Below are positions 80 to 4,607 of a stretch of 4,738 nt of DNA, piece by piece. This stretch comes from a virus (taxonomy: Duplodnaviria > Heunggongvirae > Uroviricota > Caudoviricetes). How positions within the stretch are numbered: position 1 is the first letter of the stretch; the number at the start of each line of letters is the position of its first letter. A model generated the notes under the pieces. It had not been told where the DNA came from, did no database searches, and worked only from the letters and a program-made list of their open reading frames with translations. The position numbers and the translations under genes were made by a program. Location of the stretch: the IMG/VR virus record IMGVR_UViG_2778261249_000005. One strand, 5' to 3'.

Positions 80-1945
80 ATGAGCACAAAATTCAGAACC
101 GTTATCACCACTGCCGGTGCAGCAAAGCTGGCAGCGGCAACCGCGCCGGGAGGGCGGAAGGTCAACATTACCACGATGGCCGTCGGGGATGGAGGTGGTA
201 AATTGCCTGTCCCGGATGCCGGACAGACCGGGCTTATCCATGAAGTCTGGCGACATGCGCTGAACAAAATCAGCCAGGACAAACGAAACAGTAATTATAT
301 TATCGCAGAGCTGGTTATTCCGCCGGAGGTGGGCGGTTTCTGGATGCGTGAGCTTGGCCTGTACGATGATGCGGGAACATTAATTGCCGTGGCGAACATG
401 GCCGAAAGTTATAAGCCAGCTCTTGCCGAAGGCTCAGGGCGTTCGCAGACCTGTCGCATGGTCATCATCGTCAGCAGTGTGGCCTCAGTGGCGCTGACCA
501 TTGACACCACAGCGGTGATGGCGACGCAGGATTACGTTGATGACAAAATTGCAGAGCATGGACAGTCACGACGTCACCCGGACGCCTCGCTGACCGCAAA
601 AGGTTTTACTCAGTTAAGCAATGCGACCAACAGCACGTCTGAAACACTGGCCGCAACGCCGAAAGCGGTAAAGGCCGCGTATGATCTTGCTAACGGGAAA
701 TACACTGCGCAGGATGCCACCACAGCGCGAAAAGGCCTTGTCCAGCTCAGTAGCGCCACCAACAGCACGTCTGAAACGCTCGCCGCAACACCAAAAGCGG
801 TAAAGGCAGCATATGACCTTGCTAATGGGAAATACACTGCACAGGACGCCACCACAGCGCGAAAAGGTCTTGTCCAGCTCAGTAGCGCCACCAACAGCGA
901 TTCTGAAACGCTGGCTGCAACACCAAAAGCGGTGAAGTCTGCCTATGACAATGCTGAAAAACGTCTTCAGAAAGATCAAAATGGCGCGGATATTCCTGAT
1001 AAAAGATTATTCCTGCGCAATATTGGAGCAACAAATTCAACAACCATGTCTTTTAGTGGTGGTACAGGATGGTTCAGGCTGGCAACTGTAACCATGCCAC
1101 AGGCCAGTTCCGTGGTTTACATAAGTCTGATTGGTGGTGCTGGATATAATGTTAACTCCCCTATGCAGGCTGGTATATCTGAACTTGTTCTTCGTGCGGG
1201 AAATGGAAATCCAAAAGGTCTTACTGGTGCGTTATGGCGACGGACATCGGTTGGATTTACTAATTTTGCATGGGTGAATACATCCGGTGATACCTATGAT
1301 GTTTATGTTGAAATAGGTAATTACGCCACAGGTGTTAATATTCAGTGGGATTATACCAGTAACGCCAGCGTAACGATTCATACATCACCAACTTATACAG
1401 CGAATAAACCAACAGGTCTTACAGATGGAACTGTATATGTAATTTACAGTTCGCACATTAAACCGACTGCTGCTGATGTTGGGGCGTTGTCATTATCTGG
1501 AGGTCAATTGAATGGTGCACTGGGCATCGGAACATCCAGTGTTCTTGGCGGTAACTCAATTGTTTTGGGTGATAATGACACGGGCTTTAAACAAAATGGT
1601 GACGGTAATCTGGATGTTTATGCTAATAACGTTCATGTTATGCGCTTTGTCTCCGGTAGCATTCAAAGTAATAAAACCATAAATATTACGGGTCGTGTTA
1701 ATCCCACAGATTACGGTAACTTTGATTCCCGCTATGTCCGGGATATCCGGCTTGGTGGTGCTGCCACATACAAACCTGCGAACAATGGCATGACATGGAC
1801 ACATCAGGCACCGTCCGGGTGTGTATATTCCGGCATTATTATTCAGGATACCGGCTCAAACTCTGCCGATAACATTGGTGGCGTATATTACAGACCGGTG
1901 CAGAAATACATTAACGGGACATGGTATAACGTGGCACAGGTATAA
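80..1945 (+). CDS. H: Tail fibre protein (P2 gpH-like), 621 aa; conserved N-terminal baseplate-attachment region, divergent distal receptor-binding region
   Basis: N-terminus MSTKFRTVITTAGAAKLAAATAPGG…GLIHEVWRHALNKISQDKRNSNYIIAELVIPPEVGGFWMRELGLYDDAGTLIAVANMAESYKPALAEGSGR closely matches my recollection of P2 gpH. Internal motif GGNSIVLGDNDTGFKQNGDGNLDVYAN and C-terminus RPVQKYINGTWYNVAQV are also gpH-like. GAGG at 72-75 precedes ATG at 80. Confidence 0.95.
   Translation: MSTKFRTVITTAGAAKLAAATAPGGRKVNITTMAVGDGGGKLPVPDAGQTGLIHEVWRHALNKISQDKRNSNYIIAELVIPPEVGGFWMRELGLYDDAGTLIAVANMAESYKPALAEGSGRSQTCRMVIIVSSVASVALTIDTTAVMATQDYVDDKIAEHGQSRRHPDASLTAKGFTQLSNATNSTSETLAATPKAVKAAYDLANGKYTAQDATTARKGLVQLSSATNSTSETLAATPKAVKAAYDLANGKYTAQDATTARKGLVQLSSATNSDSETLAATPKAVKSAYDNAEKRLQKDQNGADIPDKRLFLRNIGATNSTTMSFSGGTGWFRLATVTMPQASSVVYISLIGGAGYNVNSPMQAGISELVLRAGNGNPKGLTGALWRRTSVGFTNFAWVNTSGDTYDVYVEIGNYATGVNIQWDYTSNASVTIHTSPTYTANKPTGLTDGTVYVIYSSHIKPTAADVGALSLSGGQLNGALGIGTSSVLGGNSIVLGDNDTGFKQNGDGNLDVYANNVHVMRFVSGSIQSNKTINITGRVNPTDYGNFDSRYVRDIRLGGAATYKPANNGMTWTHQAPSGCVYSGIIIQDTGSNSADNIGGVYYRPVQKYINGTWYNVAQV
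611..957 (+). repeat. Imperfect direct tandem repeat, period 132 bp (44 aa), about 2.6 copies, inside the tail-fibre CDS
   Basis: Unit starts at 611, 743 and 875 (copy 3 partial and divergent). Encoded units: (T)QLS(N/S)ATNSTSETLAATPKAVKAAYDLANGKYTAQDATTARKGLV ×2, then QLSSATNSDSETLAATPKAVKSAYDNA. Copies 1 and 2 differ at roughly 15 nucleotide positions by hand alignment. Corresponds to the phage tail-fibre repeat motif. Confidence 0.9.
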
Positions 1946-1948
1946 TTT

Positions 1949-2476
1949 ATGCAGCATTTAAAAAATATTACGGTGGGTAATCCAAAAACGGTTGAACAAT
2001 ATCAATTGACAAAGGGCTTTGATGTTGTCTGGTTTTTTACAGAAGATGGTAAGAACTGGTACGAAGAACAAAAGTATTTTGCTGATGACACGATAAAAAT
2101 AGCGTACGACAAAGATAATATCATCCGCTATGTGGAAAAGGATGTGACAGCTATCAGACCGGATGGATTAAGTGTGGTTGAAGTGGCGGATATTACTGCT
2201 AACCGACGGGCGGATATTTCAGGGGGCTGGATGTTTAAGGACGGCAAAGTGATTAAACGCATTTATACGGCAGAGGAATTACAGCAGCAGGCAGAAATTC
2301 GGAAAGCCAGACTTCTTGCAGATGCTGAATCCGTGATTTTGCCGCTGGAGCGCGCGGTCAGACTGAACATGGCAACAGAGGAGGAGCGCACACGGCTGGA
2401 GGCTTGGGAACGCTACAGCGTTCTGGTCAGTCGTGTGGATCCTGCAAATCCTGAATGGCCGGAAATGCCGCAATAA
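1949..2476 (+). CDS. G: Tail fibre assembly chaperone (P2 gpG-like), 175 aa
   Basis: MQHLKNI…GNPKT…EQYQLTK…DGKNWYEE… and C-terminal [12 protein letters not shown](E/D)EER…LE(A/S)[23 protein letters not shown] match recalled P2 gpG. Starts 3 nt after the H stop, suggesting translational coupling. Confidence 0.93.
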
Positions 2477-2511
2477 GTTGTATGAACTCTGGTGTGAGCT
2501 TACATATCTAT

Positions 2512-2551
2512 GGCACAGAGTAAAGCCTAATCTGACAGTCCGCTCTGTGCC
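2512..2551. repeat. Inverted repeat (9-bp arms GGCACAGAG / CTCTGTGCC, 22-nt spacer) just downstream of G
   Basis: Seen directly in sequence. No U-tract follows on either strand, so it is not a canonical intrinsic terminator. It could be an RNA stem-loop or a recombination or regulatory site at the boundary of the cargo insertion. Confidence 0.4.
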
Positions 2552-2729
2552 AAAAGCGGGCGTTGATCACATGGGCTATGCTAACCCATTATAACAGTGT
2601 AACAGAGCTACCCACGATTACTCCCGGCCTCTAAAGTTTGCTACATAATAAAGAATCATTCCCTTTAATCTGATCTTAGCGGTATAGTATCTGGTGACCA
2701 GTAAGACAATCACCGACACTACAATCATG

Positions 2730-2757
2730 TTGATTTGCATTGTGTTTAGTCTAAAAT
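2730..2757 (+). promoter_or_regulatory. Candidate sigma70 promoter for the cargo cassette: -35 TTGATT (2730-2735), 16-nt spacer, -10 TAAAAT (2752-2757)
   Basis: Hexamers read by eye. Position about 50 nt upstream of the ATG at 2807 is appropriate. AT-rich DNA yields many chance hexamer matches, so confidence is low. Confidence 0.3.
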
Positions 2758-2806
2758 TGTGGTGCGAAAAGACCAATGAAAGTTATTGATAATAAGGAGG
2801 AATCAA

Positions 2807-3592
2807 ATGTCAGGAATAAGATGGTTGGATAAAAAAGATTTAATCCTTAAAGGAATAAATGAAGGCACCTACCCAGAATCAGTTTACAAGTTCAGAACTA
2901 TAGATAAAGCCTGTGATATTCTTCAAAAAAAAGAATTTTACTTTTCATCAGCGGAAAATTTTAATGATCCATTTGATTGTATGCTGGATGAGGAAAAAGA
3001 ATACTCTTTATCAGACTTTACTTGTTGGTTATATTCATATCAGAATGGATTAACCAAGAAGGCAAAGCAGAACTTAATAGATGTGTATAAAGAAAACAGC
3101 CAAGCATTTAATGATCTAGTTAAAAATATAAAAACAAAAGCCGTCAATGCCCATGGCATTTTATCGCTATCTAAAACTAATGAAAATGTTCTTTTATGGT
3201 CTCATTATGCGGAGAACCATACCGGAGTTGCTATAAAACTCAATATTGCTAAGGATCCAGAGTTCTTTATAACCCCCCAAAACATAGTATATATGAAGCA
3301 ATATATTCCATTAAATTATCTTAGAGACCCTAAAAAATCAATACTCGACACACTCTCTACGAAATCAATGGATTGGAATTATGAAGAGGAGATTAGAGTT
3401 TATAAAAGTAATATTGGAGCCTATAAGATTAAGCCAGAGGCAATAACTGATGTTTTTTTTGGTTTGAAAACGCTGGAACAGGATATTGCAAAAATCAAAA
3501 ATATATGTAGTGAAAATGGTCTAAGCCATGTGAAGTTTCATCGGGCTGAAAAAAAATATGGAGAATTTGCGCTACGTTTTAATCCTATTTGA
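2807..3592 (+). CDS. Hypothetical protein with DUF2971-like motifs, 261 aa; cargo gene 1
   Basis: Strong Shine-Dalgarno AGGAGG at 2795-2800, 6 nt before ATG 2807. The six-frame track begins at TTG 2786, which I consider less likely. The protein carries an FNDPFD motif (aa 52-57) and an LLWSHYAENHTGVAI motif (aa 129-143), which match my recollection of DUF2971 (PF11185) hallmarks (…fNDPfE… and …lMWshYAd.hkG…). Very AT-rich with a Lys/Asn/Ile-rich composition unlike the flanking phage genes. Confidence 0.75.
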   Translation: MSGIRWLDKKDLILKGINEGTYPESVYKFRTIDKACDILQKKEFYFSSAENFNDPFDCMLDEEKEYSLSDFTCWLYSYQNGLTKKAKQNLIDVYKENSQAFNDLVKNIKTKAVNAHGILSLSKTNENVLLWSHYAENHTGVAIKLNIAKDPEFFITPQNIVYMKQYIPLNYLRDPKKSILDTLSTKSMDWNYEEEIRVYKSNIGAYKIKPEAITDVFFGLKTLEQDIAKIKNICSENGLSHVKFHRAEKKYGEFALRFNPI

Positions 3593-3678
3593 CTTTTCTA
3601 TTTAGTAGTTAAATGATAGTGCATTACGGGCCAATTAAATTTAATTCTATGGTTGTGTAGACAATAAAAGGTAACTAG

Positions 3679-4164
3679 ATGAATCAAGATGAGTTAAAAA
3701 ATTTTTGTGTTGATGTGCGTGAAGCACTTGAGAAGATGACCAAAAAAGATCATTCACGGCTGTCATCCTTTAGAAATTCGAACTTTCCAGTGGGATGCTG
3801 CGGAGATACATCGAAACTGCTTGCTTATTTGCTTTATCAGCAATTCGGGATAGTCTCTGAAGTACTCGCAGGATATTACTATGAATCTGATCATAAGTCC
3901 CCCGCCAGCGGTCTTTCAAACGGTAATTCACATGCTTGGCTTGTCGTGGATGGAATGATTGTTGATTTGACTGCAGATCAGTTCAACGACCGGGGATATA
4001 ACAATCTTCCCGTCATGATTACATCAGACACTAGGTTTCATGACCTCTTTGCCAATCGTAATGCCTCGTTTCAACCTTCTCAAGGTAATGAAATTATTCT
4101 ACCTGATATTCTAAAAATGACAGCATCACATGTGCAGCAAAGGCTTAAAGAGCGAGGTTGGTAA
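3679..4164 (+). CDS. Hypothetical protein with transglutaminase-like / papain-fold Cys-His-Asp signature (putative cysteine peptidase or amidase), 161 aa; cargo gene 2
   Basis: AAGG at 3668-3671 precedes ATG 3679, which is immediately preceded by an in-frame TAG. Motif GCCGDTSKLLAYLLYQQFGIVSEVLAGYYY (Cys40/41, codons 3796-3801), then SHAWLVVDGMIVDLTADQF (His85 at 3931-3933; Asp100 at 3976-3978), resembles the transglutaminase-like core (G-C-x-x-fA … HAW-x-E-V … D-P-T). Same strand and composition as cargo gene 1, 86 nt downstream, so likely co-transcribed. Confidence 0.75.
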   Translation: MNQDELKNFCVDVREALEKMTKKDHSRLSSFRNSNFPVGCCGDTSKLLAYLLYQQFGIVSEVLAGYYYESDHKSPASGLSNGNSHAWLVVDGMIVDLTADQFNDRGYNNLPVMITSDTRFHDLFANRNASFQPSQGNEIILPDILKMTASHVQQRLKERGW

Positions 4165-4484
4165 TGCGGGTGCAGCAGAATCTAAAGCTGATACTTAAAA
4201 TTATATAGGAAGAGCATAAACTTATCCTAAATCTGGCTGTAATAGATCCTTTCATATATCGGCCAGATTAATATGAAGTAATCCAAATTAGTGTCTGAAA
4301 ATATAATCAGCTCCATAACAATAGATTTATCGCTTAAAAATAACGTCAACATGAGGGTAGAAAACATCCCTAAAGATAAGTCTGGTCTAACCTTTGCTCC
4401 TCGCTCAAAGCAGACTGTCAGAATTGATAGCGTTTGGGCTATGTAAATTGTCAGTCGGAAAATGAGTGAGTACAAATCAGGACA

Positions 4485-4511
4485 GGCGGGCGAATTGCCC
4501 GCCTTTTCTTT
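4485..4511 (+). terminator. Rho-independent terminator: stem GGCGGGC (4485-4491) / GCCCGCC (4497-4503), loop GAATT, followed by TTTTCTTT
   Basis: Perfect 7-bp GC-rich stem plus U-tract on the + strand, seen directly. Lies about 320 nt downstream of cargo gene 2 and about 100 nt upstream of FI, so it plausibly insulates cargo transcription from the late sheath operon. Confidence 0.6.
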
Positions 4512-4607
4512 ATCTGTTGTTTCATCCACTGACCAGTCAGGTCAAATAGCGTCTCATGCTCTGCACAACAGAAAATAGTTGCACCCATTAACCACGGAGT
4601 TAAACGG

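Follow-up and report, generated by a model that had tools for sequence, protein, structure and literature searches.

A DUF2971 protein with a predicted ADP-ribosyltransferase fold as candidate anti-phage cargo at the Z/fun hotspot of an Escherichia coli P2-like prophage

We analyzed a stretch of 4738 nucleotides (nt) of viral DNA (IMG/VR record IMGVR_UViG_2778261249_000005, hereafter the window), which is the late region of an Escherichia coli P2-like prophage. Between two of its tail genes the window carries a low-GC cassette with two genes, the first of which (gene 1) encodes a protein of the DUF2971 family. As the best explanation, to which we assign a probability of roughly 0.6, we propose that gene 1 codes for an NAD+-dependent anti-phage effector, i.e., a DUF2971 protein with a predicted ADP-ribosyltransferase (ART) fold that is carried as cargo at the Z/fun hotspot of P2-like prophages; this proposal builds on a structure model and on analogy with known systems. 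Established for gene 1 are the reality of the gene, its family membership, fold class, conserved residues and genomic location, and the mobility of its cassette between elements.

Family membership and predicted fold of the gene 1 protein

An earlier reading of the bare sequence (the original prediction) had described gene 1 as an open reading frame (ORF) with the motifs FNDPFD and WSHYAENH. RefSeq annotates the same ORF (WP_001537278.1, 'DUF2971 domain-containing protein'), and the residue numbers given at the time, i.e., N53/D54/D57 and W131/H133/H138, are correct. The ATG start codon lies seven bases downstream of an AAGGAGG ribosome-binding site at positions 2793–2799. The ORF is intact in 12 of 12 E. 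coli genomes and in copies that have diverged to 60–87% identity, and 81 clusters of homologous proteins were found, the best at E 7e-168. Compared with the orthologue from Klebsiella, differences number 42, 32 and 69 at codon positions 1, 2 and 3, respectively, i.e., they are enriched at third positions, and this substitution pattern is, at the level of sequence comparison, that of purifying selection. One further cassette copy, 95–98% identical to ours (L086 5111–5780, IMG/VR UViG 3300045988_117647), has a frameshift that splits gene 1 into two ORFs and leaves gene 2 intact.

The gene 1 protein contains 11.9% Lys and 7.7% Asn, in agreement with its earlier description as Lys/Asn-rich. Because the highest Kyte-Doolittle value over 19-residue windows is only 0.57, no transmembrane segment is indicated, and sequence analysis gave no signal peptide or evident secretion signal. 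Together with a grand average of hydropathy (GRAVY) of −0.51, this is consistent with the probably cytoplasmic protein that had been proposed. The GC content of gene 1 is 31.9%, that of gene 2 is 40.9%, and the phage genes have 46–56%.

Membership in DUF2971 was confirmed by a profile search. The Pfam model PF11185 matched gene 1 with 25.0 bits (E 4.8e-5), above its gathering cut-off of 22 bits, and residues 130–198 aligned with profile positions 1–89 of 89. Because the model spans only these residues, the FNDPFD block lies outside it. Nearly all homologues of gene 1 bear a precomputed PF11185 label. No family other than DUF2971 was matched in the profile searches, i.e., no rival characterised family came up, and NCBIfam had no model for either the gene 1 or the gene 2 protein. 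PHROG 1762, a group of unknown function, matched at 1e-62. Moreover, five of five PADLOC models for the defence candidate PDC-S31 matched gene 1 (E 2e-46, 7e-33, 4e-30, 2.5e-12 and 1e-5), the best of them over residues 23–259, i.e., nearly the full length.

For an analysis of conservation we aligned 62 sequences, most of them 20–35% identical to the protein from the window. Fifteen positions were invariant (N53, D54, P55, W131, S132, H133, Y134, A135, G140, K186, W190, E193, E195, R197 and G219), and F52, D57 and H138 were conserved in at least 90% of the sequences. The family-wide blocks NDP, WSHYA and Y-E-x-E-x-R are thus all invariant. The two motifs of the original prediction had rightly been taken for conserved DUF2971 blocks, whereas the third invariant block, with K186, W190 and the ExE residues E193 and E195 followed by R197, had been overlooked.

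In a survey from 2025, DUF2971 is predicted to be an ART of a modified H-Y-E type, akin to DarT and AbiGi, in which motif I is poorly conserved, the Tyr of motif II is strictly conserved and motif III reads ExE (PMC12522546). The invariant residues of the gene 1 family agree with this description. The survey, prompted by a DUF2971 member that is a Legionella effector candidate, found the family in 5981 species (PMC12522546); in IMG/VR viral contigs we confirmed 270 DUF2971 relatives. The function of the family had been called unknown in the original prediction, which is out of date in view of the predicted ART activity, and our fold search agrees with the survey.

An AlphaFold2 model of the gene 1 protein, built on the 62-sequence alignment, reached a predicted local distance difference test score (pLDDT) of 93.3 and a predicted template modelling score (pTM) of 0.88. 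In a fold search with this model, about 45 further matches after the top ones were almost all ARTs, among them the TreX and TreTu toxins, PARPs, scabin, and the pertussis, cholera-like and diphtheria toxins. The model has the split β-sheet of the ART fold, and its ExE lies at the start of a β-strand, as is the case for ART motif III. As modelled, the core of the gene 1 protein is a divergent ART fold, and the ARTs nearest to it are Tpt1/KptA and DarT, which modify nucleic acids.

From their invariance and from the motif assignment in the survey (PMC12522546), Y134 and E193-x-E195 are probably the NAD+-binding and catalytic residues. Alanine substitutions had been suggested at six correctly numbered positions, but Y134 and E193/E195 as the likeliest catalytic residues were not among them.

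A candidate defence role and its alternatives

Aristaios is a DUF2971 protein of 316 amino acids (aa) from the Lactococcus plasmid pUCCL641 and a validated single-gene, abortive infection (Abi)-like system that acts on phage transcription and abolishes the production of structural proteins; its ART fold, too, was found by a fold-search route (Grafakou et al. 2024, PMC11381338). It shares with gene 1 the membership in DUF2971/PF11185, a predicted ART fold, a mobile element as carrier and the lack of an obvious antitoxin. Unlike gene 1, it comes from another phylum and from a plasmid instead of a prophage, it is 55 aa longer, and it functions as a single gene, whereas gene 1 travels with a papain-fold neighbour. 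Two matches of 316 aa (P0055 and P0074) were considered as the Aristaios sequence and rejected, as neither matched a lactococcal plasmid.

By sequence, i.e., by all five models, the gene 1 protein belongs to PDC-S31, which is a computational candidate for a single-gene system, defined by its association with defence islands. DarT, the ADP-ribosyltransferase of DarTG that modifies thymidine or guanosine in single-stranded DNA, is partnered by the DarG macrodomain, whereas the neighbour of gene 1 has a papain/transglutaminase-like fold. No DarT-family model in PADLOC or Pfam matched the gene 1 protein. In addition, its model differs from DarT by a long helical insertion (residues ~58–114) and an extra C-terminal α/β unit (~213–261). 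With neither a DarT match nor an adjacent DarG macrodomain, the gene 1 locus is not a DarTG system. As for the RNA 2'-phosphotransferase Tpt1/KptA, its Arg-His-Arg-Arg tetrad is not evident among the invariant DUF2971 residues, and its role is in housekeeping or RNA repair, not as cargo of mobile elements.

In the mechanism that we propose, gene 1 would be expressed in the lysogen from the cassette's own promoter, and its product would stay silent until triggered by a superinfecting phage. Once triggered, the protein would use NAD+ for the ADP-ribosylation of a nucleic acid; a protein required for gene expression is a less likely target. Phage transcription and translation would then be shut down in an abortive-infection-like manner, and the lysogen population would be protected. 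We infer the modification and shutdown step from two things, the fold and the phenotype that Aristaios, a distant relative, confers. A role in phage-host or phage-phage conflict had already been suggested in the original prediction; the PDC-S31 matches, the Z/fun defence hotspot and Aristaios strengthen this suggestion short of proving it. Gene 1 thus plausibly adds a prophage-borne candidate to the DUF2971/PDC-S31/Aristaios type of ART-fold defence genes, a type that is itself already known.

Several observations weigh against an NAD+-dependent effector. Motif I is not conserved in the 62-sequence alignment, where position 30 is R, H, V, A, F or another residue. Although the search for structural neighbours that had been proposed led to ARTs by the fold search, Foldseek with the gene 1 model against the PDB gave no match at E ≤ 0.001, and DarT and Tpt1 appeared only at E 0.15–0.5. 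Searches of PDB sequences with a hidden Markov model of the gene 1 family gave no match either; the ART match as modelled is a remote one, at the level of the fold only. Aristaios is a distant relative, connected with gene 1 through the shared Pfam family only, and we found no experimental test of PDC-S31 in the literature searched. DarT requires an antitoxin and the macrodomain is absent here; a constitutively expressed ART would have to be kept harmless in some other way. Also, the frameshift in the L086 copy may be true decay or an assembly error, and it counts as an opposing point.

That frameshifted copy, the degenerate motif I, the rarity of the cassette (12 of 5426 complete E. coli genomes) and a Serratia bockelmannii derivative with gene 1 deleted would also suit a catalytically dead ART fold, i.e., a protein that only binds, as a decoy or nucleic-acid binder, or decaying cargo without current function. 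We regard this as very improbable, since Tyr and ExE are among 15 positions kept invariant by sequences only 20–35% identical, substitutions follow the pattern of purifying selection, and the ORF has stayed intact in E. coli as well as in the diverged copies.

Phage ARTs that reprogram the host are well established. Gene 1 might likewise act outside defence, as a lysogenic-conversion or takeover factor that modifies a host protein or nucleic acid to the advantage of the prophage or of host physiology (cf. T4 Alt, ModA and ModB), as a virulence-type effector, or as a counter-defence enzyme that disables the immunity of another element. About 18% of DUF2971 proteins are secreted effectors by prediction, in a survey that was itself prompted by the Legionella effector candidate (PMC12522546), and P2 hotspots also hold cytolethal distending toxin and partition systems; moreover, in 2004 the depositors of Z-region ORFs labelled them 'putative lysogenic conversion proteins'. 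However, the gene 1 protein carries no signal peptide or evident secretion signal, its best profile matches are models of defence candidates, and Aristaios, the sole tested DUF2971 member, is a defence system. Cassettes of the same type (see below) have mostly defence-like cargo as well, i.e., six of ten sampled proteins (LmuB, ABC ATPase, HEPN_LA2681, GmrSD_N/NsnA, RelA_SpoT/PDC-S33 and PDC-M36A). We hence consider a non-defence role improbable.

A facultative neighbour with a papain/transglutaminase-like fold

Gene 2 follows gene 1 on the same strand. In the alignment of its family, C40-C41, H85 and D96/D100 are invariant, and the model of the protein (pLDDT 90.7) places the Cys where a helix begins, with His and Asp on adjacent strands. 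The Pfam matches YunG and Transglut_core were both below threshold. The family comprises 1699 clusters at 50% identity, made up of stand-alone proteins of ~150 aa, and no fusion with DUF2971 was found among these clusters. On mobile elements, members adjoin McrBC (twice), a reverse-transcriptase gene, a TIR-domain gene or DUF2971 (L081, L082, L083, L193, L195 and L197); more distant copies have McrBC or TIR genes as neighbours or are solitary in prophages. A recurrent neighbour of gene 2 other than gene 1 was not found.

Genes 1 and 2 might form a two-gene system, in which the gene 2 protein, as a protease or deamidase, senses infection and activates the ART, or else restrains or reverses it like an antidote. 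Both genes are adjacent, co-oriented and 78–87 nt apart in every close copy examined, and the pair is present in four element types, i.e., the E. coli P2-like prophage, a lambda-P-type prophage of Klebsiella variicola, a P4-like satellite (downstream of its primase) and a fourth phage-like contig. They have diverged in parallel, with gene 1/gene 2 identities of 87/93, 74/77 and 72/78%. The spacer between them is conserved and a scan found no terminator in it, gene 2 has an intact catalytic triad and a confident fold, and another DUF2971 operon with a papain-fold toxin domain is on published record.

On the other hand, a Providencia orthologue of gene 1 (60% identical) has no gene 2, nor have 80 of 80 distant viral DUF2971 loci, and Aristaios is active as a single gene. 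Copies of gene 2 at 74, 71 and 69% identity lack gene 1 and adjoin a reverse-transcriptase gene or McrBC. Relatives of gene 2 without an adjacent DUF2971 gene were found at 73 genome loci and 25 viral loci; one gene 2 relative locus, L022, has only a weak match to the gene 1 profile (26 bits) about 5 kb away. In Serratia bockelmannii (L195 3638–4737) the same cassette has cleanly lost window positions 2771–3547, i.e., almost all of gene 1. The leader remains, as do the final 19 gene 1 codons and gene 2 together with tail and right border site; the cassette sits on the margin of an element with an integrase. The difference in GC content between the two genes (31.9 versus 40.9%) and the roughly 1700 stand-alone clusters without a single DUF2971 fusion also speak against a joint system.

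Solo copies of each gene, the gene 1 deletion derivative and the lack of fusions led us to reject an obligate partnership. Because each gene also occurs alone, we treat the pairing as facultative, and the two-gene system is a tentative reading on the unlikely side. In its most far-reaching form, the ART and its papain/transglutaminase-fold neighbour would be an undescribed two-component anti-phage system. The Cys-His-Asp enzyme would sense or license the ART, e.g., through activation by proteolysis or deamidation, or would serve as its antidote. The ART would then ADP-ribosylate nucleic acid of the phage or the host, and unrelated phages and satellites would swap the unit as a cassette with inverted repeats at its borders. 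This we consider quite unlikely.

A separate arrangement occurs in Klebsiella aerogenes (L193 4001–6421), where a gene 2 copy of 71% identity precedes a reverse-transcriptase gene (RVT_1, 500 aa), and a homologue of window positions 4154–4279 comes next. This looks like an insertion of the reverse-transcriptase gene at the junction of gene 2 with the cassette tail.

Prophage context, cassette borders and implications

The cassette is part of a low-GC insert of 2.1 kb that separates G, the gene for tail-fibre assembly, from the tail sheath gene FI (Table 1). In strain KKo009 the same sequence lies within a complete P2-type prophage, from terminase to ogr, beside yegQ. This G–FI interval is classically known as the Z/fun accessory locus, which is among the defence hotspots of P2 (2026 survey, PMC13586616). 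With both annotated repeats and this position, the insert belongs to the inverted-repeat-flanked P2 Z/fun inserts; the hotspot and this type of insert are both already known. The Z-region inserts of P2-like coliphages described earlier (Nilsson, Karlsson and Haggard-Ljungquist 2004; AJ512676–AJ512681) have the same left and right inverted repeats (95–96% identical) at the same position, but they carry other cargo ORFs than the window. DUF2971 has also been listed, untested, in a different arrangement in the other P2 hotspot (Rousset 2022 supplement).

Among 5426 complete E. coli genomes, the 12 that have the cassette carry it at 99% identity or more, i.e., its occurrence is rare and patchy. 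The same cassette was also present in a lambda-P-type prophage, in the hotspot of a P4-like satellite and in another phage-like element.

Table 1 Features of the 4738-nt window. Positions are those of the window; cells are empty where no value applies.
Feature	Position	Strand	Remarks
Tail fibre gene H	80–1945		Phage_tail_fib and Phage_fiber_2 domains
Tail-fibre assembly gene G	1949–2476		Caudo_TAP
Left inverted repeat of the P2 Z-region	2453–2563		96% identical to 'left inverted repeat' of AJ512680 (P2-EC46 Z-region) over 2453–2559
'B' site, hairpin-like inner end of left repeat	~2540–2562	+	GTCCGCT-CTGTGCCAAA-AGCGGGC
Cassette leader, non-coding	2564–2806	+	Conserved
Promoter candidate	2730–2757	+	Sigma-70-like, TTGATT-16-TAAAAT; promoter scan
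Gene 1	2807–3592 (including stop)	+	261-aa DUF2971 protein with predicted ART-like fold; ATG start
FNDPFD block of gene 1	2960–2977	+	Residues 52–57; conserved
WSHYAENH block of gene 1	3197–3220	+	Residues 131–138; conserved
YEEEIR/ExE block of gene 1	3380–3397	+	Third conserved block, within KS..W.YEEEIR
Weak promoter-like site	3589–3617	+	TTGACT-17-AATGAT; scan
Intergenic spacer, gene 1–gene 2	3593–3678	+	86 nt; mean column identity 85% across four element types
Gene 2	3679–4164	+	161-aa protein with papain/transglutaminase-like fold
Cassette tail, non-coding	4165–4391	+	Conserved with Klebsiella and L078 copies up to 4407/4415
Right inverted repeat of the P2 Z-region	4392–4482		95% identical to 'right inverted repeat' of AJ512680 over 4396–4479
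'A' site, inner end of right repeat	4393–4415		TTTGCT-CCTCGCTCAA-AGCAGAC
Intrinsic-terminator-like hairpin	4484–4504	+	9-bp stem with 7 G-C pairs, TTTCTTTATC tail (T-run); P2 backbone, upstream of FI
Tail sheath gene FI	Start 4608		

The cassette is a low-GC unit of 1.8 kb flanked by inverted repeats. By comparison with L192, a P2-like prophage with different cargo, the backbone ends at about 2565 and resumes at about 4387; up to the former position the left repeat is common to both prophages, as is the right repeat from the latter onward. The part shared with non-P2 elements extends from about 2546/2610 to 4407/4415, and in these elements the inner 20 nt of the left repeat are kept at the cassette edge. 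Within the window, the right repeat pairs with positions 2531–2557 as inverted repeat I1.

Across the Klebsiella, metagenomic and P4-like copies (proteins 72–87% identical), conservation of the leader of about 240 nt roughly equals that of the coding sequence. The leader may hold promoter or operator elements; the −10 element of its predicted promoter is not strictly conserved. Nothing pointed to a structured RNA in the leader, which has no Rfam match, is not unusually stable (z +0.87) and shows hardly any covariation. A minus-strand ORF of 52 aa in the leader (2618–2776) was considered as a small hydrophobic type I toxin and rejected, as differences show no bias among its codon positions (8/6/7) and its frame is broken in L080. 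The cassette tail is absent from the P4-like copy, in which similarity stops at 4170. The promoter candidate and the terminator-like hairpin frame the cassette as a unit. On the minus strand, an ORF of 100 aa (4227–4529) matches phrog_11095 only over its conserved P2 backbone part; overlapping the terminator hairpin and the P2 backbone, it is probably spurious. Outside the insert, a 132-nt unit is present three times in tandem within gene H (598–955, the Phage_fiber_2 repeat, ...GLVQLSSATNSTSETLAATPKAVKAAYDLANGKYTAQDATTARK...).

The two border sites are related to each other, i.e., they are 23 nt long and share the same stem, with the canonical sequence TCCGCTCCTGGCACARAGCGGAC on one strand and TCCGCTCCTCGCTCAWAGCGGAC on the other. 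Because they are the inner ends of repeats annotated in 2004 (AJ512679, AJ512680), the border feature has already been described. An exact 16-mer of the right site occurs at 120 or more IMG/VR loci, 94 of which have no P2-type late proteins within the fetched stretch. Pairs of a left and a right site in the same relative arrangement, 0.3–4.8 kb apart, were found in 45 cases at IMG/VR loci (e.g., L199 4604/6871, L212 6741/9231, L227 1430–2798 and L078 6588/6629; loci L199–L318). These pairs enclose one to three ORFs, with the single exception of a pair 342 nt apart that encloses none. Some cassettes are in tandem, and their composite junctions consist of a right site, ~18 nt and a left site. 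The arrangement of the sites resembles a general cassette-exchange device.

We rejected the flanking sites as covarying hairpins, as base pairing at stem position 4 holds in only 36 of 88 unique copies. Because this covariation is weak, conservation of the border sites is mainly at the sequence level. To our knowledge, the sites fit none of ERIC, REP, attC, dif, nut or invertase sites. We identified no recombinase for them. The literature searched held no published mechanism either, and a search with the site sequence returned only unrelated primers.

DUF2971 is a very large family, and its lone validated defence member, Aristaios, is found in Lactococcus. Should gene 1 simply behave as Aristaios does, the result would be incremental. 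The E. coli copy nevertheless offers a convenient system, with a confident model, few candidate catalytic residues (Y134, E193, E195, NDP and WSHYA) and a native cassette of only 1.8 kb. With it one could ask whether DUF2971 modifies RNA, DNA or protein, and what keeps an ART that may be toxic silent when there is no antitoxin like DarG. A second testable question comes from the facultative pairing with gene 2, whose papain-fold family is widespread and uncharacterised (~1700 clusters) and often found beside McrBC, reverse-transcriptase or TIR genes.

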